Assembly (NCBI GenBank): GCA_964562165.1
Contig: CAZLRZ010000004.1
Location: 1-41,261 of the forward strand
Length of the DNA stretch: 41,261 nt
Direction: 5' to 3'
DNA from: an uncultured Candidatus Saccharibacteria bacterium
GTDB lineage: Bacteria > Patescibacteriota > Dojkabacteria > B142 > OLB20
Positions 9,174-37,764 of this stretch are shown here, one piece after another (position 1 is the first letter of the stretch; each line of letters opens with the position of its first letter). The position numbers were made by a program, and so were the translations under genes. The notes below the pieces were generated by a model. That model was not told where the DNA came from and ran no database searches. It worked only from the letters and a program-made list of their open reading frames with translations.

Positions 9174-9776
9174 TTAGTCTTTCGACATTCTCCCTTTAAC
9201 ACCGCTAAAATGAGCAGATAGTACATCATAATCAAACAATTCTTGATTGCCAAACCAAAGTGAGATTTCTTCTTGTGCTTCGGCAACTTCGCCAGATGCA
9301 TGGATGATATTGTAAAGGGGTCTTTTTTGTTCGTTTGCAAATTCAACACTATCCGTGCCAAAATCTCCCCTAATTGTGCCGGGCACTGCAATTGCTGGTA
9401 TTGTGTCACCTGCTAATTTTCTGCCGGTAAGAACTGCATTTGGTCCTTCAAAAACCATTGCCATTACTGGACCAAAGTTCAAATATTCAATTAACCACTT
9501 CTTTACCAATTTACCGATATCCATAGCATTATTCGTCCCTAGTATTAGGGTTGCATCTAGGCCTCGTTCCTGGTATTCCTTTAAAGTTCTCTCACCAACC
9601 TTTGTGAACCATTTTTCTGAAACTGGATAATGGCTATCACCCATTTCCTCTGTGGATTGGATGAATTCCATTGCTACGATTTTCAATCCTACTCTTTCAA
9701 AACGAGCTATTACTTCTCCAATTAATCCCCTGGCTACTCCATCATGTTTGACAATTATTAGTGTTTTTTCGGACAT
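9174..9776 (-). CDS. ndk: Nucleoside diphosphate kinase, long form with internal insertion
   Basis: TLIIVKHDGVARGLIGEVIARFERVGLKIVAM, GTIRGDFG, and active-site context NIIHASG. It is about 50 aa longer than the ~140-150 aa canonical NDK. Confidence 0.85.
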   Translation of the reverse strand: MSEKTLIIVKHDGVARGLIGEVIARFERVGLKIVAMEFIQSTEEMGDSHYPVSEKWFTKVGERTLKEYQERGLDATLILGTNNAMDIGKLVKKWLIEYLNFGPVMAMVFEGPNAVLTGRKLAGDTIPAIAVPGTIRGDFGTDSVEFANEQKRPLYNIIHASGEVAEAQEEISLWFGNQELFDYDVLSAHFSGVKGRMSKD

Positions 9777-9803: not shown

Positions 9804-10406
9804 TTACAGCATTCCAATATAATCGACCCTATTGTATTCGCCTAAATATTTAAATTTATCGCCAAACCAATGCGCGATTTCTCTTTGGGCTTCTTCTACA
9901 GAATCTGATCTATGAACTAAAGTTTTAAAAACGATTCGGCCAGATTTAACGGCCATTTTAGGAGTGTCAAAACCAAAATCCCCCCTCACTGAACCAATAT
10001 CAGCGGTTAGTGGATTGGTTTCTCCCATTAACTTAGCAATAATTTCTACTGCATTATTACCTTCCCAGACACTGATAACAACAGGGCCTTCGGTTAAATA
10101 ATCAACTAGGGATTTGTATACGATTTTACCGATTGCTAATCTATCTGTTGTGCCCATATCTTCCATCATTGCTTTTTCATCACCTTTGTAATTAGCATAT
10201 GTTTTTTCGCCCATTTTTATCATCCATTCATCAGTCCCGGGATAATTACCTTTAGCTTGTTCCTTTGTGGCCCAAATCATTCTCGTGGCAACAACTTTAA
10301 GCCCCATTCTTTCTACTCTTTTAAAAATATCCCCTATTAAACCTCGCTTAACGCCATCAGGCTTAATCATTAAGAAGGTATGCTCTATTGTGTCTATTTT
10401 CTTCAT
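9804..10406 (-). CDS. ndk: Nucleoside diphosphate kinase, second tandem long-form paralog
   Basis: TFLMIKPDGVKRGLIGDIFKRVERMGLKVVA, GSVRGDFG, LVHRSDS. I place the start at Met26 of the track ORF (ATG 10404-10406), which forms an ATGA overlap with the tmk stop. The longer ORF would overlap tmk by 79 nt. Confidence 0.85.
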   Translation of the reverse strand: MKKIDTIEHTFLMIKPDGVKRGLIGDIFKRVERMGLKVVATRMIWATKEQAKGNYPGTDEWMIKMGEKTYANYKGDEKAMMEDMGTTDRLAIGKIVYKSLVDYLTEGPVVISVWEGNNAVEIIAKLMGETNPLTADIGSVRGDFGFDTPKMAVKSGRIVFKTLVHRSDSVEEAQREIAHWFGDKFKYLGEYNRVDYIGML

Positions 10407-11023
10407 ATTATTTTTGTTAATTTTTTTAAAATATTTTTTTTGACTTCTTCGATTGTGCCATTTCCATCGACAATTATCCATTCACCAAAGATTTTATTTT
10501 TTGCTAAATATAAAAAGCCATCACGAATTTTATATTGTTTTTTGAGATCTCTTTCGTTTATATCTAAACCCTTCTCATGACCTTCTTCTTTTGATTTTCG
10601 ACTTAATGCAACTTCGGGCAAAACGTCTATAAAGATATTATAATCGGGCTTACTAATTTTAAAAGTATCAGCAAATTTTAAAGCATCGTCAATATCAACT
10701 GATTTGTTCACTAAACAGTTATAAACTATGTTTGTTGTAAAATACCCATCACAGAGGAAAAAGCTCGAATTAGACCCCTTAGACGCCTTAATTTTGTCTT
10801 GAAACATAAGTTGATCAAGTCCAAAACTAACAAACAATGCTTCGGGGGATAGTTTAATTTCTTCTAACAAAAAAGGTTTAATATAATTTTTATACAATAC
10901 ACCTTGGTGATCAGGGAATTCCATACTCTCTATTTGAAGATTGAGAGTTTTTAAGTATTCAAAAAGCTCTAAACGCTGGCGTCCTTTTCCAGCCCCATCA
11001 ATGCCCTCAAGTACTAAAAACAT
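10403..11023 (-). CDS. tmk: Thymidylate kinase
   Basis: P-loop FLVLEGIDGAGKG at the N-terminus; length and layout fit dTMP kinase. Confidence 0.85.
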   Translation of the reverse strand: MFLVLEGIDGAGKGRQRLELFEYLKTLNLQIESMEFPDHQGVLYKNYIKPFLLEEIKLSPEALFVSFGLDQLMFQDKIKASKGSNSSFFLCDGYFTTNIVYNCLVNKSVDIDDALKFADTFKISKPDYNIFIDVLPEVALSRKSKEEGHEKGLDINERDLKKQYKIRDGFLYLAKNKIFGEWIIVDGNGTIEEVKKNILKKLTKII

Positions 11024-25824: not shown

Positions 25825-27246
25825 TTATGCCAAAGGATCGTCATCCTCGCCTAATAATTCTTTTAGACGTTCCATTTCTGGTGATACGCCCATTTCTTTT
25901 GCTAGTTCTTTTTTGCTCTTTGGAGTCTCTTCGACAACTGGAGTCTCTTCGATGACTGGAGTCTCTTCGACGACTGGGGTCTCTTCGACTACTTTTTCCT
26001 TTGGAGCCTTTTCGACTTCCTCGACCTTTTCTACTTTCTCAACTTTTTCAGATTTTTCGACTTTTTCGGCTTTTGGTTCTGGTTTAACTTCTTCAGCTTC
26101 GGCCTTTGGAGCTCTACTGACTCGTTTTAAACTTAGACCTAAGTGTCTGTCGTCTCTTGAAATTGAGATGATTTCTAATTCGTATTCTTTGTTGGCTTCG
26201 ACAATCTTACTTGGGTCTTTGACCAATCTATCTGAAAGTTCAGAGATATGAATCAATCCATTTAATCCTTCTTCGATTCTGACAAATGCACCGTAGTCAA
26301 CGATTTTGGTGATTTCTCCCATTACTCTTTGACCGACTTTGTATTTTTTAACAATAGCCTCCCATGGATCGGGCATTAATCTCTTGATTGAATATGCGAT
26401 TCTCTTACCGCCATCATCGATTCCGATGATTTCGACTTTTACTGGATCGCCAATCTTGAAGAAGTCTGCAGGATTAGTGACTTTATCCCATGAAATTTCG
26501 GATAAGTGGACCAAACCTTCGAGACCTTTTGCATTAACGAATAATCCAAATGGTGCAATACCTGTGATTTCACCCTCTAATTTATCTCCAACCTTAACGT
26601 GCTTAAGCGTTTCGGCTCGTTTATCCATATCTTCTTTACCTGTGTCTTTCTTCTTTTCTGAGAAGATGACTCTATTTTTTTCTCTATCAATTTCAATGAC
26701 TTTAACTTCAAGCTCTTTACCGATCAATTCGGCCAATTTACCTTGTAGTTCTTTGTCTGCATCTTGTTTGCTTGCATAACCACCTAATGGGTAAATTCTG
26801 GAATTATCTAGTTGAGAGGTTGGAACAAAGCCTCTTAAGCCACCGCCGATGTTTACAATAACACCACCGGTATTAGCTTCGATGACTTCGACTTTAACAT
26901 TTAAGTCATTTTCAAGAGCATTGTTAAGCTCGAACCACTTTCTAGCGGTTCCGGTCCTTCTAATAGAAAGTTCTATTTGCCCTAAAGGATTTTCTCCTTT
27001 TAAAACATAAACTAAAATTTCGTCTCCTACTTGATAGTTTAGTTTTTCTCCGGTTAACTTCATTTCTTTACCGGAAACTATACCTTCGGCACGGCCTCCA
27101 ATATCGCAAATGATTTCTCCTTTTGAGATTGAGAGAACTATACCTTTAATGATTTGTCCCCTTTTGAAAGTCTTGGGGAAGACTTCTAAAGATGCTAAAT
27201 ACTCTGAAATAGGATCTGTAGAATTAATTTGGGCTTTATTAGCCAT
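25825..27246 (-). CDS. rpsA: 30S ribosomal protein S1 with a repetitive acidic C-terminal tail
   Basis: Multiple S1 OB repeats (e.g. GEITGIAPFGLFVNAKGLEGLVHLSEIS, GEITKIVDYGAFVRIEEGLNGLIHISELS). The tail is KVEKSEKVEKVEKVEEVEK..VVEETPVVEETPVIEETPVVEETP. Confidence 0.9.
   Translation of the reverse strand: MANKAQINSTDPISEYLASLEVFPKTFKRGQIIKGIVLSISKGEIICDIGGRAEGIVSGKEMKLTGEKLNYQVGDEILVYVLKGENPLGQIELSIRRTGTARKWFELNNALENDLNVKVEVIEANTGGVIVNIGGGLRGFVPTSQLDNSRIYPLGGYASKQDADKELQGKLAELIGKELEVKVIEIDREKNRVIFSEKKKDTGKEDMDKRAETLKHVKVGDKLEGEITGIAPFGLFVNAKGLEGLVHLSEISWDKVTNPADFFKIGDPVKVEIIGIDDGGKRIAYSIKRLMPDPWEAIVKKYKVGQRVMGEITKIVDYGAFVRIEEGLNGLIHISELSDRLVKDPSKIVEANKEYELEIISISRDDRHLGLSLKRVSRAPKAEAEEVKPEPKAEKVEKSEKVEKVEKVEEVEKAPKEKVVEETPVVEETPVIEETPVVEETPKSKKELAKEMGVSPEMERLKELLGEDDDPLA
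25921..25992. repeat. 18-nt in-frame tandem repeat x4 within the rpsA tail
   Basis: TGGAGTCTCTTCGACAAC, TGGAGTCTCTTCGATGAC, TGGAGTCTCTTCGACGAC, TGGGGTCTCTTCGACTAC. These encode (V/I)EETPV units on the minus strand. Confidence 0.9.
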
Positions 27247-27317: not shown

Positions 27318-27347
27318 ATTATATCAAAAAATGTATGCATCCGTCAA
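27318..27347 (-). promoter_or_regulatory. Promoter candidate for rpsA (TTGACG, 18 nt, TATAAT)
   Basis: On the minus strand, TTGACG is at 27342-27347 and TATAAT at 27318-27323. Confidence 0.45.
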
Positions 27348-27349
27348 AA

Positions 27350-28402
27350 TTACATTACTGGATTTACCGGACCAATTGAATCGGTGGCCGCTACAGGATT
27401 TGCATCGGAAATCGGCGCTACTGGAGGAGCCTGATTGACTGGGCTAGCCTGACTTGTGGATTCTGAAGGACCATCATCTAGGTTGATCCCCATATCTTGC
27501 AATTGAGAGATCAGATTCGGTGATGATGATGCTTTAACTTCCTCAACTGGTTCAGGTGTAACAGGTTCCATTGGTTTTATAGGTGCTACCGCCTCTTCTA
27601 AGGGTTTTTCAATTACAGGACTAACTTTTACCGGAGCAACTTCAACTGCTTCGGGTTTAACTGTTTCCGGCTGAACTGGTGCAGGTTCTACAGGTGTAAC
27701 TTCAACAGTCACAGCTGGCTTGGCTTGTGCTTCTACAACGTTAGCTAGCCATTCAGGGAGTTCAGGTTCTGTTTTTGTACCATCTTTAATTTCGCCTATA
27801 TCATCCATAATTGTCGCAACGACTGGTTTATTAAGGGTATCAACAGGTTCTGTAGCTGCCTGTGTATCAGTTGGGACTTCTGTTTCTGAGATTAAACCCT
27901 TAGATTGTTGAGCCAACTTTTCTGTTTCAGTTGCGTTATTGTTTAGATTTTCAAGATCTATTTCTTTTATTGTGTTTGTATCCAAATCTATCAAGCTACT
28001 CAACGATAATAATGTATTGTATTTGATTATTGGATTCATAGCATCAAGATATCTGGCAATTTCCTTACGATCTTCTGCAGGTAAAACCGGTAAGAGGTTG
28101 TCATAGAACATCTTACCAAAAGAATCTATTGATTCGGTAAGTAATTTAATCAACTCTTCTTCCCTTAATATTGCTTTTATATCTTCATCTACTGTTGCAT
28201 TATCAGGGTTTTCGAGAGACTGCATTAATGCATTTATTTTGTTTGGATCTATCTTTTTTTCGTTGAGATAATATTTTATTGTTTCCTCTATAAGTATAAA
28301 CAGCTTTGACATTAGGCTGCTATAAGTAGCAAAAGTTTCTTCATCATCTTTTGTTTGAAAGAGAATTGATATTATGTACGGATCGAGTAGATATTTTCTC
28401 AT
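27350..28402 (-). CDS. Hypothetical protein: helical N-terminal half and Pro/Val/Glu-rich low-complexity C-terminal half
   Basis: 350-aa ORF, the last gene of the unknown operon. No TM helix or signal peptide is visible. The tail reads PAVTVEVTPVEPAPVQPETVKPEAVEVAPVKVSPVIEKP. I recognise no family. Confidence 0.75.
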   Translation of the reverse strand: MRKYLLDPYIISILFQTKDDEETFATYSSLMSKLFILIEETIKYYLNEKKIDPNKINALMQSLENPDNATVDEDIKAILREEELIKLLTESIDSFGKMFYDNLLPVLPAEDRKEIARYLDAMNPIIKYNTLLSLSSLIDLDTNTIKEIDLENLNNNATETEKLAQQSKGLISETEVPTDTQAATEPVDTLNKPVVATIMDDIGEIKDGTKTEPELPEWLANVVEAQAKPAVTVEVTPVEPAPVQPETVKPEAVEVAPVKVSPVIEKPLEEAVAPIKPMEPVTPEPVEEVKASSSPNLISQLQDMGINLDDGPSESTSQASPVNQAPPVAPISDANPVAATDSIGPVNPVM

Positions 28403-28424
28403 TTGTATTTTAATTAATATTTAA

Positions 28425-29744
28425 TTAAGAAATTGTTGCGCTTTGTGCAGCAGCCGCCGCTGCATTTAGGTTCTTTGCAAATCCAAGGCCGGTTGAAAGC
28501 TCAATTTGCTTTTTAATCGTATCAAACTGCTCTTGTGATAATATTCTACCAGTTTTAGCTGCTTCGCCCCTTGTTGCGATTTCAATAAGGAACCCTAAAT
28601 AATCAGCTTTACTGTTTGCGTTTTTGGATAACTTTGTTTTGGCTGCAACCTCAGCCTTTTGCAGAGCTGCATTAGATGTACTCTTTAAAGCATCGATCGC
28701 TCTCCAACTCTTGAGTCCCCCTCTTTCCTGATAATTTGCGATCCCAGCTAAAATACCAACAGACCCAAGTGCAGCACCACCCACCAGCATACCCAAGGTG
28801 ACATTGCTTATTAACGCTCCAGCCCCCACTCCAGCACCAGTAAACAACAAGGCTACTAATAATGCTGGACCCCCATACTTAATCAAATTCCCAACTTTTT
28901 TACCAAAAATTTCAAGGTTTGTAACTTCCTCTGATTTTGCAGTTGCGACATCTGCCGCTGCAGAAGCTTCTGCATATCTAGTTTGGGCATCGCTAAGATC
29001 TTTCGCTCTTTGAATCATTTCAATATATATTCCCTTCATCGGAGGAGACATCCCATCTAAGGCATGACTAATAACGCTAGTTGCTAAATTAGCCCCAGTA
29101 GTTCTAAAAATCTCTCTTCTGTCTTCTATTTTTCCAAATTCAATATTTAAACGATCTTTAACCTCTAAATTTTGTATAGCGTCAATTTTCGTCCTTAAAG
29201 CATCAAGGCTTTCAATTGTTCCTTTATTATAATCTGCCAATAAATCGTCTACCTCTTTTTGTACGCTAGTATTAATCCTTTCTTGTATTTTGTTTTTTAG
29301 ATCTGCATTAATATTTGTGCCAGCCGCTAATTCAGTATTCCATATAGCCCTAGTATAGATAGGACTGCTCAAATATTTATCTGCATATGCTTCAATAGCG
29401 GCGGTTTCTATCTCTACCTGCTTGGCAGGATGATTTGTAATAATATCGTTAATATCCCCAGCAATAGGATTTTCAGCTAATCTTCTAGCTTCCATTTTAG
29501 AAGCAACTGTACGTCCATCAGGTTCTAAAAGTGGCCTTAATCCATCTAATACAACCACTGCATCATTTTTTATTGTTTCTACTTCAGTGACATTTTTGGC
29601 ACCCTCAAATTTAGCATTAATTACTGCTATATTTAAGCTAGCTTTTAAAGCTTCAACAGGATTATCTTTTACTGAGGCTTCTATTGGCCCCTTAGCTAAT
29701 TCTTGAAATTTTACTGCAGCTTGATGTCCTGGAGTTGTTGACAT
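28425..29744 (-). CDS. Hypothetical large protein B (439 aa) with a C-terminal glycine-zipper TM hairpin; paralogous at the C-terminus to 30048-31916
   Basis: Helical N-terminal region, then KYGGPALLVALLFTGAGVGAGALISNVTLGMLVGGAALGSVGILAGIANY, GGLKSWRAIDA, and AKTGRILSQEQFD. The start is 2 nt after the stop of the 94-aa ORF. Confidence 0.8.
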   Translation of the reverse strand: MSTTPGHQAAVKFQELAKGPIEASVKDNPVEALKASLNIAVINAKFEGAKNVTEVETIKNDAVVVLDGLRPLLEPDGRTVASKMEARRLAENPIAGDINDIITNHPAKQVEIETAAIEAYADKYLSSPIYTRAIWNTELAAGTNINADLKNKIQERINTSVQKEVDDLLADYNKGTIESLDALRTKIDAIQNLEVKDRLNIEFGKIEDRREIFRTTGANLATSVISHALDGMSPPMKGIYIEMIQRAKDLSDAQTRYAEASAAADVATAKSEEVTNLEIFGKKVGNLIKYGGPALLVALLFTGAGVGAGALISNVTLGMLVGGAALGSVGILAGIANYQERGGLKSWRAIDALKSTSNAALQKAEVAAKTKLSKNANSKADYLGFLIEIATRGEAAKTGRILSQEQFDTIKKQIELSTGLGFAKNLNAAAAAAQSATIS

Positions 29745-29746
29745 AG

Positions 29747-30031
29747 TTAATCGTTAATAGCTTTAGGATCTTTAGAAATTAAATCCAGCTTATCATCGTC
29801 AAGTTTTTCGTTTTCAACTAGTTCATCAAGTGCCATTACTAATTCTAAAATATCGTGATCCGACATTTTTTTTGAATATCTATAAATATACACAAATTCC
29901 CTTAACGCAGAATTTCTAATTCTATATCCAGGAATAATTAATTTAAGCTCCTGCGCTGCTTTACCTGCTGCAACATCTTTAGCCTTATTATTATCTAGGA
30001 ACTTTGTTAAATCGTTGTTTGAATTTGTCAT
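29747..30031 (-). CDS. Hypothetical small protein b (94 aa), paralog of 31913-32176
   Basis: It shares the core IIPGYRIRN..KKMSDHDILELVMALDELVEN with IVGPRVRN..EKMSHEDIVQKILDYDEYVEK of the 87-aa ORF. It has an acidic C-terminus and no TM helix. Confidence 0.75.
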   Translation of the reverse strand: MTNSNNDLTKFLDNNKAKDVAAGKAAQELKLIIPGYRIRNSALREFVYIYRYSKKMSDHDILELVMALDELVENEKLDDDKLDLISKDPKAIND

Positions 30032-30047
30032 TGTACTTTCTTAATAT

Positions 30048-31916
30048 TTAAGCTATCGCTAAATTAAATAATCCCTTTGTTGGACGACCTGCACTCTCGG
30101 GACTATACCCGATTAAGCCATAAGCCCTTCTTAACATTTGGTCATATGCACGTTTATCAACTATTCTACCCGTTTTAGCAATTTGGGCTTGCACCGCCAT
30201 TTCTGCAATACTCCCTAAAGTTGCCTCTTGTGATGCAGCCAAATTGCCCTGCATAGCAAGTATTTTTGGCTCTACAGCAGCCAACCCGGCAATAGCCCTA
30301 GCTTTTTCAGCCTCTATGTTTCTCCACTCTTTTAAACCACCACCAAAGGCGTATTTACCACCACCGATAAGGCCTGGAACACCAACACCAACCAGTAATG
30401 GTATTAATTTATATGCACCATTAATATTACCCGTCAGCGCAATTAACCCACCTATACCAAGGCCTAAAAAAGCAGGTCCAAAATATTTACTGATAAGGCC
30501 AGCCTTTTTCCAAAAAGCATTGAAGTCTTTAGCTTTAGCCTCTTTTTGAAGTGCAACACCTTCTGCTGCTACGGCTATACGATTGGCCTCATTTAATTTA
30601 GATTGATTAAGTAGTTTTTCTCTTTGAATACTTTTTGAGGGTTCTGGTAAGCCCTCAAGGGTTTTTTCGATGATTTGGTTAATTACTACTTCCCTCATGA
30701 CGGCACGATCTGATCTTTCTTTGTCAGACATTTTAGCTAGTTCTTCTGGTGTTTTATCTCTACCATAAAAGATGTCATATGGTATTTTATTTACATCTGT
30801 CCTATTCTGACCTGAAAGAAGAGTACCAAATCTTTCGCTGGTATCTTTAAAATCCCTTTTACTCGCCATTATTAGATCGAAGAATTCAGAACCTTCTTGA
30901 TAACCTAATTCCGCTGCTTCGATCTCCAACTCAGTCAATTCAATTTCACCCCTTGTAAATCTTTCAATTAATTTATCTGCTTCACTTCGGGATTCTTCTC
31001 TAATTGTGCTTCGAACTCGATTCGCTGTATCTTGATCAATCCTCCCTTTTGATACCATATTATTGATTGTTTTTTCTGCAGCATCCCTACTGCTAAACTT
31101 CAAATCTTGCACCATACCGCTTACAGCTGCATCCCTTATTCCTTTTTCATTACCTGGATCTTCCGTAATTAGAGCACTAAGGGAAGGACCATCATAGCCA
31201 TCAGGATTCACTGAATCAAAACCTTGCGAAATCCCTCTAGCTTTGTTAAGTCGTAAATTTGTTTTATCTGCTTCTGTTTGAAGTTCATCTGAATGTCTAC
31301 CTATAAAATCTTGAATAGCTTTTAACCTATCCGTGGTGCTTTCTTTACCCTTTAGCTCTGCTGCCAACCTTGCGACTTCTAAACTAAATTGGATGTTTCC
31401 TTTTGCTGATTCATTTAGTATTCCAAGTATACGTAAAGTATCTTCATCTAATTTATAGCTTCCAGCTTTTTCATCTATAACTGTACTATTTTCACTAGCT
31501 CTTTCACTTTGGGTATCTCCAATTTGGTTGTTTGATGAGACTACCGAATCATCTATGTTTCTAATAGATTCTGTTGATGGTGTATCATCGGTGGATATTT
31601 GAGCGAACTCTTTTACTGCCTGTAATTGATCCTGTGAGGCTTCGTTTGGTTTTGCAGCATCAAGGGTTGCAAGTTGTGCCATTCTATTATCATACAAATC
31701 TCTTTGACCCTTCGTCAAAGCCGTCTGATCAATTTTTCCCAAGTCTTCTATTGTCCCAGCCCTATTAATTGCAGCTGTCCTAATCAATTTTTCACCACCC
31801 ATCGGATCCATCGGATTCGGCACAGAAGCAATATCAACAACAGCGTCTATTACAGAAGTTTGCTGAGTATCTTTTTCCCTGCCTGAATTTCCAAGTTCTG
31901 GATTACCTGTGCTCAT
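30048..31916 (-). CDS. Hypothetical large protein A (622 aa) with a C-terminal glycine-zipper TM hairpin
   Basis: Long charged, helical N-terminal region, then KYFGPAFLGLGIGGLIALTGNINGAYKLIPLLVGVGVPGLIGGGKYAF, GGLKEWRNIEA, and AKTGRIVDKRAYD. Its ATG overlaps the stop of the 87-aa ORF (ATGA at 31913-31916). Confidence 0.8.
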   Translation of the reverse strand: MSTGNPELGNSGREKDTQQTSVIDAVVDIASVPNPMDPMGGEKLIRTAAINRAGTIEDLGKIDQTALTKGQRDLYDNRMAQLATLDAAKPNEASQDQLQAVKEFAQISTDDTPSTESIRNIDDSVVSSNNQIGDTQSERASENSTVIDEKAGSYKLDEDTLRILGILNESAKGNIQFSLEVARLAAELKGKESTTDRLKAIQDFIGRHSDELQTEADKTNLRLNKARGISQGFDSVNPDGYDGPSLSALITEDPGNEKGIRDAAVSGMVQDLKFSSRDAAEKTINNMVSKGRIDQDTANRVRSTIREESRSEADKLIERFTRGEIELTELEIEAAELGYQEGSEFFDLIMASKRDFKDTSERFGTLLSGQNRTDVNKIPYDIFYGRDKTPEELAKMSDKERSDRAVMREVVINQIIEKTLEGLPEPSKSIQREKLLNQSKLNEANRIAVAAEGVALQKEAKAKDFNAFWKKAGLISKYFGPAFLGLGIGGLIALTGNINGAYKLIPLLVGVGVPGLIGGGKYAFGGGLKEWRNIEAEKARAIAGLAAVEPKILAMQGNLAASQEATLGSIAEMAVQAQIAKTGRIVDKRAYDQMLRRAYGLIGYSPESAGRPTKGLFNLAIA

Positions 31917-32176
31917 TTATTTTTCCCCTTCGCTAAATTAATTTTCTCTTCCGTTACCAAACCCTTTTCTACATATTCATCATAATCAAGTATCTTTTGG
32001 ACAATATCTTCGTGACTCATTTTTTCATTTAAATATTTTTTAACTAGGTTTCGCCAGATAACATTCCTGACCCTTGGCCCCACAATTATTGTTGGATTTG
32101 GTTTTTTTATTCCTGCTAAATCCCCCTTCAGAATTGAAGAGAGTTGTTGTTGTGATGATAGATCAGAACTGGACAT
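31913..32176 (-). CDS. Hypothetical small protein a (87 aa)
   Basis: It is translationally coupled to the 622-aa ORF and is a paralog of the 94-aa ORF. Confidence 0.75.
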   Translation of the reverse strand: MSSSDLSSQQQLSSILKGDLAGIKKPNPTIIVGPRVRNVIWRNLVKKYLNEKMSHEDIVQKILDYDEYVEKGLVTEEKINLAKGKNK

Positions 32177-32259: not shown

Positions 32260-32526
32260 TTACAAATTGATATCTTCATCCATATAACCCATTCTGCGTT
32301 CGATTTTTTTTCGAAGATATTCGATGAGATCAAGCATGCCTTTTTGGCTTTCTTCATCTAGAGAGAGCTTAAGAATGCCATCTTTGAATTTGTTTAGTGA
32401 ATCAAGAGCGACATAAAAATCGGTGCCAACTTCAAGGTTTGCCTCGGAATAGGTGTCATTTAAAGCCTTGCCTACTCTGGCAAGATGACTGATTCTTTCT
32501 TTTGTGGCTTCGTCGGGCTCGATCAT
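32260..32526 (-). CDS. Hypothetical small acidic helical protein (88 aa from ATG 32524-32526)
   Basis: The track ORF (to 32577) starts with the TTG of a TTGACA box. The first ATG gives MIEPDEATKERISHLARVGK... I recognise no family. Confidence 0.6.
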   Translation of the reverse strand: MIEPDEATKERISHLARVGKALNDTYSEANLEVGTDFYVALDSLNKFKDGILKLSLDEESQKGMLDLIEYLRKKIERRMGYMDEDINL

Positions 32527-32547: not shown

Positions 32548-32577
32548 TAATATGGGGTATGAGGGGAATTTTGTCAA
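32548..32577 (-). promoter_or_regulatory. Promoter candidate for the unknown operon (TTGACA plus an AT-rich -10 region)
   Basis: On the minus strand, TTGACA is at 32572-32577, followed 17-19 nt later by CATATT/TATTAT. It lies just downstream of the 5S terminator. Confidence 0.35.
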
Positions 32578-32657: not shown

Positions 32658-32685
32658 AAAAAAAATCCCGACATTTCTGTCGGGA
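32658..32685 (-). terminator. Rho-independent terminator after 5S rRNA
   Basis: 8-bp stem TCCCGACA (32666-32673) / TGTCGGGA (32678-32685). On the minus strand it is followed by T8 (the A-run at 32658-32665). Confidence 0.85.
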
Positions 32686-32695
32686 CCTTTTTTAC

Positions 32696-32811
32696 TCTGG
32701 CGATTACCTATTTTCCCAATCCCTTTCGAAATAAGTATTTTCGGCGCTACAGCGTTTCACTTCTCTGTTCGGTATGGGAAGAGGTGGGGCCACTGCGCTA
32801 GAATCACCAGA
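32696..32811 (-). rRNA. rrf: 5S ribosomal RNA
   Basis: The reverse complement reads TCTGGTGATTCTAGCGCAGTGGCCCCACCTCTTCCCATACCGAACAGAGAAGTGAAACGCTGTAGCGCCGA...GGTAATCGCCAGA. This has the conserved CCGAAC loop and paired ends. Confidence 0.9.
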
Positions 32812-33007: not shown

Positions 33008-36050
<3,043 letters not shown>

Positions 36051-36119
36051 ACAAGTTTTTTACAAATTTGAGTAGCGCTAATTAAATTTCATTGAAAATT
36101 AACCGCGCTAAAAAAAAAT

Positions 36120-36474: not shown

Positions 36475-37764
36475 ATGCCACCAAACATTGTTCAATTGCC
36501 AAAAGAAAAATCCGTATCCGAAGCGAAGGTTAAAGACAAAGACAAACTAATTGATACCGTTACCTTTTTTGGAGATTCTGCTTTTCCTGAGGATGACGAA
36601 AACTACAAGGCAGCCTGGGAAACAGCGAAATATTTATCCGAACACGGCTACACCATAGTTAATGGAGGAGGCCCCGGTATTATGAAAGCGGCCACAGATG
36701 GAGCTGAATCCGTTAACGGAGAAACAATGGCAATTTATTGGCAACCAAAATTGGCCTCGTTTTTTGAAGGAAGAAATTTGGCAAACGTTACAGATGAATC
36801 AGATACAGCGTCAAACTATCTAATTAGAACTCTTGGTTTAATTGAAAATGGCGACGCATACATAATATTTAAAGGTGGTACTGGAACGATTTCTGAATTT
36901 GGAATGGTTTGGTGTCTCGCGAAACTTTACTATGGAGCCCACAAGCCAGTTATCCTTTTTGGGAAATTTTGGGACAATGTAATCGAAAGTATTCAAAAGA
37001 ACCTAGCCATTGATGAAATTGAGCTTTCGGTCTTAAATCAGGCTAACTCTCCAGAAGAAGTCTTAGACATTCTTGTTAAACACGAAGAAAAACTTAAAAA
37101 AGTATTTCCCAAAAATCGAAAATTTGGATCCGACGAACAAGGCTTCATCCTTGGTGGAGACACCGATTCTAGTAAAAAAACTTATCAGGCATATAACGAA
37201 ATTGCATCAGATTATCACTCAAAACATGCCGGTAAACTTACAGCACAAGTTCAACTTGATGATTTTAGATCGATGGTAAATTCACCAGCACAAGTGCTTG
37301 ATATCGGATCAGGCCCTGGCCATGACGCCAATTACTTATCAGAAAAGTACTCCGTTACGGGCATCGAACTTAGCAAAAGATTTTTTGAAATTGCAAAATA
37401 CGAAAATCCTTCCGTTAATTTTATAAATGGAGACATTACAAAAGTTGAATTAGATAAAAACAAATACAAAGGAATCTGGGCAAGAGATGCATTACATCAT
37501 ATTAAAAAAGAAGATCTCGAAAGTGTTTTCAAAAAAATAGCCGATTCCCTAGTGGAAGGCGGAATCCTATACACTTTAGTTAGAGAAGGTACCGGTGAAA
37601 TTATTGAAGAAGAAAAAACACAATACGCCACAACCGAAAAATTCTTCCACCTATTTTCAGAAGAGGAACTAATTGGATACGCAAGTAGGGCCGGTTTAAA
37701 ACTGGTTAAAACTGAACACACAAAGAGAAGTCACAAATGGATTATTGGAGTATTTAAGAAATAG
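36475..37764 (+). CDS. Fusion protein: LOG/SLOG-family Rossmann domain (N-terminal) plus class I SAM-dependent methyltransferase (C-terminal)
   Basis: The N-terminal half has VNGGGPGIMKAATDGA and FKGGTGTISEFG (compare the LOG GGGxGxMG and PGGxGTxxE motifs). The C-terminal half has VLDIGSGPGHDANYL (SAM motif I) and GGILY. Confidence 0.75.
   Translation: MPPNIVQLPKEKSVSEAKVKDKDKLIDTVTFFGDSAFPEDDENYKAAWETAKYLSEHGYTIVNGGGPGIMKAATDGAESVNGETMAIYWQPKLASFFEGRNLANVTDESDTASNYLIRTLGLIENGDAYIIFKGGTGTISEFGMVWCLAKLYYGAHKPVILFGKFWDNVIESIQKNLAIDEIELSVLNQANSPEEVLDILVKHEEKLKKVFPKNRKFGSDEQGFILGGDTDSSKKTYQAYNEIASDYHSKHAGKLTAQVQLDDFRSMVNSPAQVLDIGSGPGHDANYLSEKYSVTGIELSKRFFEIAKYENPSVNFINGDITKVELDKNKYKGIWARDALHHIKKEDLESVFKKIADSLVEGGILYTLVREGTGEIIEEEKTQYATTEKFFHLFSEEELIGYASRAGLKLVKTEHTKRSHKWIIGVFKK

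Follow-up and report, generated by a model that had tools for sequence, protein, structure and literature searches.

An operon of small proteins and glycine-rich hairpin proteins with a hypervariable cassette, at a fixed chromosomal position in small-genome Patescibacteria

Introduction

The window analysed here, a stretch of 41,261 nucleotides (nt) from an uncultured Candidatus Saccharibacteria bacterium (assembly GCA_964562165.1, contig CAZLRZ010000004.1), contains six tightly packed minus-strand genes, U-S1-L1-S2-L2-D, which lie behind one promoter-like site between the terminator of a 5S ribosomal RNA (rRNA) gene and rpsA. L1 and L2 encode large proteins with a glycine-rich hydrophobic hairpin, S1 and S2 encode small proteins, and U and D belong to two further families. 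Comparison of related loci shows the block L1-S2-L2-D to be a co-inherited hypervariable cassette with at least two deeply diverged classes, which pass from one lineage to another by homologous recombination in conserved flanks. Our account of the operon, its paralogy, the architecture of its proteins and its allelic replacement is given with high confidence.

An earlier note on this DNA, made from the sequence alone, had described four consecutive minus-strand open reading frames (ORFs) as two copies of one module, a small gene followed by a large one (87 + 622 and 94 + 439 amino acids, aa). All four are present: S1 at 31913-32176, L1 at 30048-31916, S2 at 29747-30031 and L2 at 28425-29744. 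The two modules are real, but they are not a recent tandem duplication of two genes; the unit is the six-gene operon, and the duplication is ancient and fixed.

Replacement of the Cassette

The extent of the replacement is clearest when the window is compared by blastn with a related locus, L013. The two share 88% DNA identity from the tRNA and rRNA region to position 31926, which lies in the last codons of S1. From there to position 27329 no similarity is detectable across L1, S2, L2 and D (27350-28402, minus strand; 350 aa, the last gene of the operon), and at 27329 identity resumes at 89% and continues into rpsA. The cassette therefore corresponds to positions 27329-31926. The gene order in L013 is nevertheless the same, with an L protein of 441 aa, an S protein of 82 aa, a second L protein of 451 aa and a D protein of 311 aa, and each L protein has a glycine-rich hairpin followed by a tail of about 85 aa.

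BLASTP finds no link between the large proteins of L013 and those of the window. Profile comparison by hhalign, however, aligns the window's class (type A) with L1 of the other class (type B) at a probability of 96% (E 1e-9) and with type-B L2 at 90% (E 2e-6), while type-B L1 and L2 align with one another at 98% (E 2e-13). By this measure, the large proteins of both types are one superfamily. Type A is found in the window and in the loci L004, L005 and L008, and type B in L013, L014/L018 and L015/L024.

The distribution of the two types does not follow the flanking genes. Between L004 and L018, protein identity is 99% for rpsA, 91% for clpC and 95% for U, as against 21% for L1, 24% for S2 and 20% for L2. 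Between L004 and L008, both of type A, the corresponding values are 74%, 62% and 65% for rpsA, clpC and U, and 30%, 52% and 39% for L1, S2 and L2. At least two allelic classes are therefore discordant with their flanking genes. The same pattern of identity breaks recurs in blastn comparisons among L004, L014, L015 and L018; the left breakpoint falls in the middle or at the 3' end of S1, and the right one in the last ~150 nt of D or just beyond. In addition, S2, L2 and D are identical in L018 and L020, while the flanking U, S1 and rpsA of this pair differ at a synonymous divergence (dS) of 0.09-0.5, which indicates a recent transfer of the cassette.

Variation is also found within a class. L018 and L015 share 76% DNA identity across S2-L2, yet the N-termini of their L1 proteins differ, one being built of ~25-aa helical repeats and the other of a (PDAQ)n repeat. 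Across alleles, L1 varies in length from 441 to 712 aa. For the L018 allele of L1, the 90% cluster includes length variants of 668 and 693 aa. The allele with the long (PDAQ)n repeat is encoded at 10589-11968 in L015 and at 6586-7996 in L024; in GCA_035388705.1 repeat collapse or a frameshift has probably split the gene call in two (116 + 319 aa). It recalls a hypervariable gene with PTD repeats in a Gracilibacterium (PMC6851277).

Site-specific inversion, or a shufflon, was considered as the source of the variation and rejected, there being no substantial direct or inverted repeats. The earlier note had argued that the locus is core rather than a mobile island. The absence of a mobile island is borne out by the fixed chromosomal position, by the lack of flanking repeats and by a GC content like that of the rest of the window. 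The locus is also core in its position, since synteny is identical in all relatives, but it is not core in sequence. Likewise, the note's picture of a variable N-terminus on a conserved membrane anchor understated the variation, since the whole L1-S2-L2-D block is replaced.

Selection on the Cassette Genes

Nearly all recent changes in L1 are nonsynonymous. Between L018 and L020, L1 has 19 nonsynonymous and 2 synonymous differences, and 15 of 18 amino-acid changes lie in the first 230 residues. Between the window and the 99.7%-identical locus L001, L1 has four nonsynonymous differences and no synonymous one. At larger distances, the ratio of nonsynonymous to synonymous divergence (dN/dS) of the cassette genes is 0.11-0.17, compared with 0.01-0.04 for rpsA, clpC and radA. 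These sequence comparisons show the N-terminal part of L1 to be the fastest-changing piece. Replacement by deeply divergent versions among otherwise near-identical genomes is what an arms-race locus would be expected to show.

Architecture of the Large and Small Proteins

The paralogy of L1 and L2 is significant in BLASTP, at 65.1 bits (E 2e-15). The earlier note had recognised their kinship but confined it to a C-terminal module of ~160 aa; the shared region extends over ~350-400 aa, and BLASTP aligns residues 249-594 of L1 with 101-410 of L2. Its claim that the N-termini are unrelated holds for the first ~165-250 residues of L1, a poorly conserved and poorly predicted extension. It does not hold for the sequence beyond, since motifs common to both paralogs (P...I..AA, G.ID, Y..GEI.TLE.L and VI..L.G..EP.K.IY) are conserved in an alignment of nine L proteins, at a great distance upstream of the hairpin. 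L1 thus consists of the extension, the core shared with L2, the hairpin and a tail of 96 aa. The DNA-level conservation of the AKTGRI codons was verified, with 17 of 18 nt identical between 28542-28559 and 30162-30179.

The hairpin was found where the note had placed it, as two adjacent hydrophobic segments towards the C-terminus of each large protein, and there is no hydrophobic segment at the N-terminus. In L1 it spans residues 472-526 (30339-30503, minus strand; 29% Gly, maximum KD19 1.48) and in L2 residues 283-339 (28728-28898, minus strand; 23% Gly, maximum KD19 2.18). These stretches of 55-57 aa contain no acidic residue and two or three Lys/Arg, and are followed by a tail of ~100 aa. 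All alleles examined have such a glycine-rich hairpin (16-34% Gly), 37-65 aa long, uncharged or nearly so and composed of two adjacent hydrophobic lobes, with a tail of 77-114 aa. Basic residues flank the hairpin on both sides. The L1 hairpin is only moderately hydrophobic, while those of the L2 type are strongly so (KD19 2.0-2.2 over 57-65 residues).

In the window's two hairpins, GxxxG-type zipper motifs do not exceed what composition gives. L1 has three such motifs against 4.1 expected and L2 five against 2.6, a number reached in 70 of 1000 composition-matched shuffles. Periodicity of small residues at i, i+4 exceeds that of shuffles in the L2 proteins of L004 and L008, but not in the L1 or L2 of the window nor in most other alleles. 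For this reason, "glycine-rich hydrophobic hairpin" is the safer name.

The last 7-10 residues of the L proteins have a hydrophobic pattern that is kept in both paralogs and both allele types, with endings such as FN.QFS, FNLAIA and MAFNFN in type A and NAILAV and EDLLAV in type B. Judged from the pattern itself, these residues may form a helix used in packing, or else serve as a signal for export or recognition.

S1 and S2 are soluble by hydrophobicity and belong to a family of ~85-aa proteins (79-114 aa among the S proteins compared). Their paralogy is supported by BLASTP (34.3 bits, E 1e-8, 38% identity over 53 aa), so that both the large and the small pair pass the pairwise test of significance that the earlier note had proposed, and the core it had read from the two small proteins is retained in a 16-member family alignment. 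Each small gene lies directly upstream of its large partner. The overlap of the S1 end with the L1 start in ATGA (4 nt, 31913-31916) and the 2-nt gap between S2 and L2 (29745-29746) were both confirmed from coordinates and sequence. The adjacency of small and large genes is conserved, as the note had expected, in every related locus found, which together comprise at least eight distinct cassette versions. S2 co-varies with the cassette type.

In the alignments, S1 orthologs group together and so do S2 orthologs, and the same is true of L1 and L2. The duplication therefore predates the divergence of all these genomes, and L1/L2 and S1/S2 are shown to be ancient paralogs.

D has a conserved N-terminal domain of ~130 aa (LDPYIxSILF ... 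LLPxL..RKEL.RYL), a long middle region of low complexity that is rich in Pro, Glu, Val and Thr and variable in length, and a short C-terminal motif, L..(M/L)G(I/V)(D/N)L(D/N), that is kept in both allele types. Kinship among U, S, L and D was considered and rejected by hhalign; they are four mutually unrelated families.

Relatives and Rarity

An exhaustive HMMER search with a profile of L1 and L2 found nine proteins among 1.84 billion representatives, of which some are of the L1 type (611-712 aa) and the others of the L2 type (439-461 aa). This two-sequence, type-A profile missed type-B proteins that the databases contain, so the rarity figure applies to type A. A search with full-length L1 found only a 99%-identical copy, and an alignment of L2-type proteins found no relatives in GTDB representative genomes and only two short metagenome contigs. 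A profile of the S family (16 sequences) found 21 clusters among 5.8 billion, all of 47-114 aa and all unnamed. The source annotation of all relatives is "hypothetical protein". More divergent versions may exist elsewhere in Patescibacteria.

A scan of GTDB representative genomes based on U found five loci. The clade consists of small-genome metagenome-assembled genomes of Patescibacteria, of ~0.8-1 Mb, labelled Saccharibacteria or Dojkabacteria. The order U-S-L-S-L-D-rpsA-clpC-radA-rho is seen in L004 (844 kb), L005 (988 kb), L008, L013 (808 kb), L018 and L024; the contigs of 844 and 988 kb imply that these are near-complete small genomes. The wider gene order is also the same in all relatives, namely an LDcluster4-methyltransferase gene on the opposite strand, 23S, 5S, U, S, L, S, L, D, rpsA, clpC, radA and rho.

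Public labels disagree for contigs that carry the locus (L013, L014, L017 and L024), which are assigned to Candidatus Saccharibacteria, Candidatus Dojkabacteria, Anaerolinea sp. or Dehalococcoidia. The two Chloroflexi labels sit on contigs of 3-5 kb and look like binning errors. Given the conflict between Saccharibacteria and Dojkabacteria, the lineage is referred to here as Patescibacteria/CPR only.

In some relatives there is an additional gene between 5S and U. In L015 (8470-9954) and L024 (4467-5951) it is a 494-aa ORF encoding an acidic helical protein, and in L005 (8696-9313) an ORF of 205 aa that has a hydrophobic segment at the N-terminus. Genes are therefore inserted upstream of the operon as well.

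Position of the Operon and Neighbouring Genes

The window is a housekeeping stretch of low GC content (~36%). Upstream of the operon, all on the minus strand, are the 23S rRNA gene (33008-36052) and the 5S rRNA gene (32695-32811), followed by a terminator hairpin (32666-32685). The 23S-5S pair has no adjacent 16S gene. The sigma-70-type promoter-like site (32549-32577, minus strand), TTGACA-17-CATATT, is a consensus match only, at 10 of 12 positions, and may serve U and the genes behind it.

U (32260-32526, minus strand), the first gene of the operon, encodes a soluble 88-aa ORFan protein with 64-92% identity among relatives and is the most conserved member. Its start is the ATG at 32526, and the gene calls in L001 and L004 likewise begin at ATG. 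A 105-aa version of this ORF with a TTG start is over-extended, because that TTG is part of the -35 hexamer of the promoter-like site.

Downstream of the operon are rpsA, clpC, radA, rho, a gene for an M23/LysM peptidase, leuS, comEA/comEC and mreB. The C-terminus of rpsA (25825-26100, minus strand) is a repetitive tail rich in Lys, Glu, Val and Pro, with KVEK and EETPVV units; among relatives it differs in length and sequence (rpsA 424-498 aa), while the S1 domains are 72-99% identical. Next to the 23S gene, and divergent from it, is a fusion of a SLOG/LDcluster4 (lysine-decarboxylase-like) domain with an S-adenosylmethionine (SAM) methyltransferase (36475-37764, plus strand), an arrangement kept in all relatives. 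Elsewhere in the window are two tandem nucleoside-diphosphate-kinase-like (NDK-like) genes (9174-9776 and 9804-10481, minus strand; 200 and 225 aa). Both match the NDK model in two separated stretches, which suggests insertions in the domain.

Family and Structure Searches

None of S1, S2, L1, L2, U and D has a significant match in Pfam, NCBIfam, PHROGs or PADLOC, and profile searches of PDB sequences with the L and S alignments gave no match (for L, none at E <= 10). This agrees with the earlier note, which had recognised no family for its four proteins. Scanned against Pfam one by one, the members of the L and S alignments showed no consistent weak match. In particular, there was no match to the WXG, LXG, Rhs, CdiA, colicin, PE, PPE or WXG100 families, to IpaB/SseC-type translocator models or to models of the tetratricopeptide repeat (TPR), and nothing in the way of a sensor or effector domain, such as a nuclease or NTPase, was detectable. 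One of the nine L members matches C19orf12 in Pfam below threshold (E 0.026), which is discounted because composition explains it. At E <= 0.1, the only PADLOC matches are of U with PDC-M40C (E 0.0023, 15.6 bits) and of L1 with PDC-S05 (E 0.074), both insignificant.

AlphaFold2 models were built from a two-sequence alignment for L1 and a nine-sequence alignment for L2, and both are all-helical. The L1 model is poor, with a mean predicted local distance difference test (pLDDT) score of 52. The mean for L2 is 62, reaching 70-88 for residues 80-270, and the hairpin is not resolved. In the L2 model, a helix of 55 residues (236-291) is predicted to run into the hairpin and a second of the same length (343-398) to follow it.

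Foldseek found nothing significant for these models in the PDB; the best E-values are 0.49 for L2 and 0.51 for L1, and for L2 the TM-score is at most 0.19 and the probability at most 0.14. The top PDB matches of L2, themselves insignificant, are dominated by pore and pre-pore forms of alpha-pore-forming toxins of the ClyA family (SmhB, AhlB, PaxB and MakA), which may be taken as an architectural lead only. The profile searches and the structure comparison that the earlier note had set as a check therefore gave no confident match to a described system. Literature searches found no prior description of the locus among papers on hypervariability, pore formation or glycine zippers in Saccharibacteria and Patescibacteria.

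A Possible Role at the Host Interface

The reading that we favour, tentatively, is that the operon encodes a chaperoned pair of membrane-inserting proteins that act at the host interface. L1 and L2 would form a membrane-inserting hetero-oligomer, joined by the core, hairpin and tail that are homologous between them. As dedicated cytosolic partners of the holdase or adaptor type, S1 and S2 would hold the hairpin proteins soluble and export-competent. The complex would be deployed where the epibiont meets its host, as a translocon-, pore- or anchor-like device in the target membrane, and the variable N-termini would face a fast-evolving counterpart, leading to a turnover of alleles. A more specific version is doubtful: a two-component device of a kind not recognised before would be inserted with the help of chaperones into the host membrane, where it would act as a translocon, an anchor or a pore for feeding, its export perhaps using a type IV secretion system (T4SS), and the idiomorph-like allelic classes would set or track host range in a continuing arms race.

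Several observations lead to this proposal. Cooperation of L1 and L2 is suggested by their always being both present and always of matching type, and co-adaptation within the cassette by the exchange of its genes as a block. We further infer that each hairpin protein has in its S protein a dedicated partner; the earlier note's suggestion of a chaperone or adaptor with its client, or of a membrane-inserting effector, is compatible with what was found. Deployment at the host interface is favoured because an arms-race signature is combined with universal retention in a genome of ~0.8-1 Mb, because the gene of each hairpin protein is coupled to one for a small soluble protein directly upstream, because the hydrophobicity of the L1 hairpin is modest, and by analogy with translocators, Inc proteins and alpha-pore-forming toxins. 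Membrane insertion and the analogy with chaperones draw weak support also from the lack of a signal peptide, from the succession of long helix, hairpin and long helix in the AlphaFold2 model, from the ClyA-family toxins at the top of the insignificant PDB matches, and from the T4SSs of Patescibacteria.

A number of findings weigh against a role at the host interface. Firstly, the strongly hydrophobic hairpins of the L2 type favour insertion into the cell's own membrane, and basic residues on both sides of the hairpin fit cytoplasmic termini in the producing cell. Secondly, no secretion-system gene is present in the window or in the sampled flanks of relatives, where all neighbours are housekeeping genes. 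Thirdly, all fold matches are insignificant, and the models have low confidence exactly where the hairpin lies. Fourthly, the counts behind the nonsynonymous excess are small, and the excess between L018 and L020 is not significantly above neutrality. Finally, S1 is 69% identical between the window and L018 even though their L1 proteins are unalignable (22%), which means that the variation in L1 is not followed by S1.

Alternative Explanations

Some of these points are met by a different arrangement, in which L1 and L2 form a cytoplasm-facing complex in the cell's own membrane, with S1, S2 and D as cytosolic subunits, and confront phages or mobile elements. The arms race would then be with intracellular invaders, for example through abortive infection or exclusion by a membrane-permeabilising hairpin effector. 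The lack of a signal peptide, the strong hydrophobicity of the L2 hairpins with their basic flanks, and the absence of secretion genes from the window and sampled flanks would all be accounted for, and allelic replacement at a fixed hotspot with raised dN/dS is also typical of defence loci. However, neither the six proteins nor the type-B alleles have a PADLOC match, and the sensor and effector domains looked for, nucleases and NTPases among them, were not detected. Moreover, defence systems usually vary in presence, whereas this operon is found in every relative, with the same architecture and in the same position. We regard this explanation as unlikely.

A lineage-specific housekeeping role was also considered, such as a scaffold of the envelope or of cell biology (e.g., in division, shape or membrane organisation) that is weakly constrained and whose variability is a by-product of recombination. 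Coiled-coil-like helical proteins tolerate many substitutions, and dN/dS values of 0.11-0.17 for L2, S2 and D still amount to purifying selection; the fixed position among housekeeping genes, the presence throughout the clade and the high conservation of U would also be expected. What makes a scaffold rather improbable is the manner of the variation. A clock-like fast rate cannot explain an rpsA that is 99% and a clpC that is 91% identical where L2 is 20% identical; very divergent alleles must instead be long-lived and maintained side by side. The recent changes in L1 are nearly all nonsynonymous and cluster towards the N-terminus, and L1 varies in length and repeats (441-712 aa, with (PDAQ)n and ~25-aa helical repeats).

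Glycine-rich hydrophobic hairpins are known in membrane-depolarising toxins, and a co-inherited hypervariable multi-gene cassette in which S2 co-varies with L2 would suit a contact-dependent or secreted pair of pore-forming toxins, acting as a bacteriocin or in kin discrimination, with S or D as immunity or export factors. This is very improbable, since polymorphic toxins conserve the N-terminus and vary the C-terminal toxin, which is the reverse of the pattern seen here. Furthermore, S and D, which would have to provide immunity, are soluble and not membrane proteins, S1 is conserved across unalignable L1 alleles, and there are no matches to LXG, WXG, Rhs, CdiA or colicin families.

A prophage remnant with a tape-measure-like protein and its chaperone, an analogy that the earlier note had drawn from glycine zippers and for which only the glycine-rich hydrophobic segments and the helical character speak, is effectively refuted: there is no PHROG match at E < 0.07 and no relative among 2.9 million viral contigs, the best BFVD match in Foldseek has an E-value of 0.13 with tape-measure proteins only at ranks 11 and 45 of insignificant matches, and in all genomes the neighbours are rRNA, rpsA, clpC, radA and rho, with no phage genes or att-like repeats.

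Relevance to Epibiont-Host Interaction

How epibionts from the Candidate Phyla Radiation (CPR)/Patescibacteria breach or tap their bacterial hosts, and what determines the range of these hosts, is still to be explained. T4SSs occur widely among Patescibacteria (PMC12102498), and in Saccharibacteria one for which no substrates are named is essential for epibiotic growth (PMC10633639, PMC12857230). Apart from this system, only pili and a few adhesins have so far been implicated in the interaction with the host (PMC10633639). The locus described here is a compact operon of four ORFan families that is kept in every genome of the clade (~0.8-1 Mb), while its hairpin proteins are swapped for unalignable versions. 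It is at a locus of such a kind that one would expect a specificity determinant or an arms-race interface.

If the proposed role at the host interface is correct, the operon provides a defined candidate that is genetically testable. If the complex faces inward, it would be an unusual case of a minimal genome in which a cytoplasmic membrane complex is under balancing or diversifying selection. Whichever holds, the four families merit names and structures.

Comparison with Known Systems

An architectural parallel exists with the ClyA-family alpha-pore-forming toxins (AhlB/SmhB, YaxAB/XaxAB/PaxB and MakA). These are all-helical proteins whose long helices carry a hydrophobic helical hairpin that enters the target membrane; their components, two or three paralogs from adjacent genes, work jointly, as is suggested for L1 and L2. 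Some members have no signal peptide, as is the case here. The toxins differ in having no small partner genes, and the hairpin of the L proteins is much richer in glycine. Similarity to the ClyA family in fold or sequence was not found by Foldseek, PDB profile or Pfam searches. A true relationship to helical pore-formers or translocators that is too distant to be detected is possible.

The translocators of the type III secretion system (T3SS), such as IpaB/IpgC, SipB/SicA and YopB-YopD/SycD, consist of a helical pair with internal hydrophobic hairpins, which is inserted into a target membrane, and a small dedicated chaperone, encoded adjacent to the pair, which keeps it soluble in the producer. 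Here, unlike in those pairs, each large protein has its own small partner. The class II chaperones are TPR proteins of ~160 aa, whereas the S proteins (~85 aa) are roughly half that size and have no TPR match in Pfam. No T3SS gene is present in the 41-kb window or in the ±10-kb flanks of relatives.

In type VII secretion, the PE/PPE and LXG-Lap modules place a helical protein of ~100 aa directly upstream of a large partner; they are tandem-duplicated and polymorphic, and the two proteins form a secretion-competent complex. The polarity of variation is opposite, since in these modules the N-terminus is conserved and the C-terminus variable. There are no WXG100, LXG, PE or PPE matches in Pfam, and no type VII secretion genes were seen. 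Mic10 and C19orf12 also have a short glycine-rich hydrophobic hairpin, but are small proteins without the helical N-terminal region of ~300-550 aa.

What defines the Inc proteins of chlamydiae is a bilobed hydrophobic motif and not sequence similarity, most of them being unrelated to one another; they are delivered into a host-derived membrane (PMC6717882). Every allele of the L proteins has a bilobed hydrophobic motif of this type, in a stretch of 37-65 aa. On the other hand, Incs are secreted through the T3SS by pathogens that live inside eukaryotic cells, mostly carry the motif close to the N-terminus, and are not encoded in paired S-L modules.

Hypervariable replacement loci, such as those for capsule or O-antigen, cassettes of pilins or surface proteins, and idiomorph-type recognition loci, share with the operon a fixed position, sharp breaks in identity and discordant alleles, and the conserved flanks, abrupt breaks and discordant classes reported above place the operon among them. 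Those loci encode sugar enzymes or recognisable secreted surface proteins, whereas the cassette belongs to a set of four ORFan families of conserved architecture, without signal peptides. Among all the systems compared, none shows a detectable relationship to the operon by sequence or fold; the system is rated on these grounds as lying outside the known kinds, and what it has in common with them is the Inc-like bilobed motif and the organisation of a hypervariable replacement locus.

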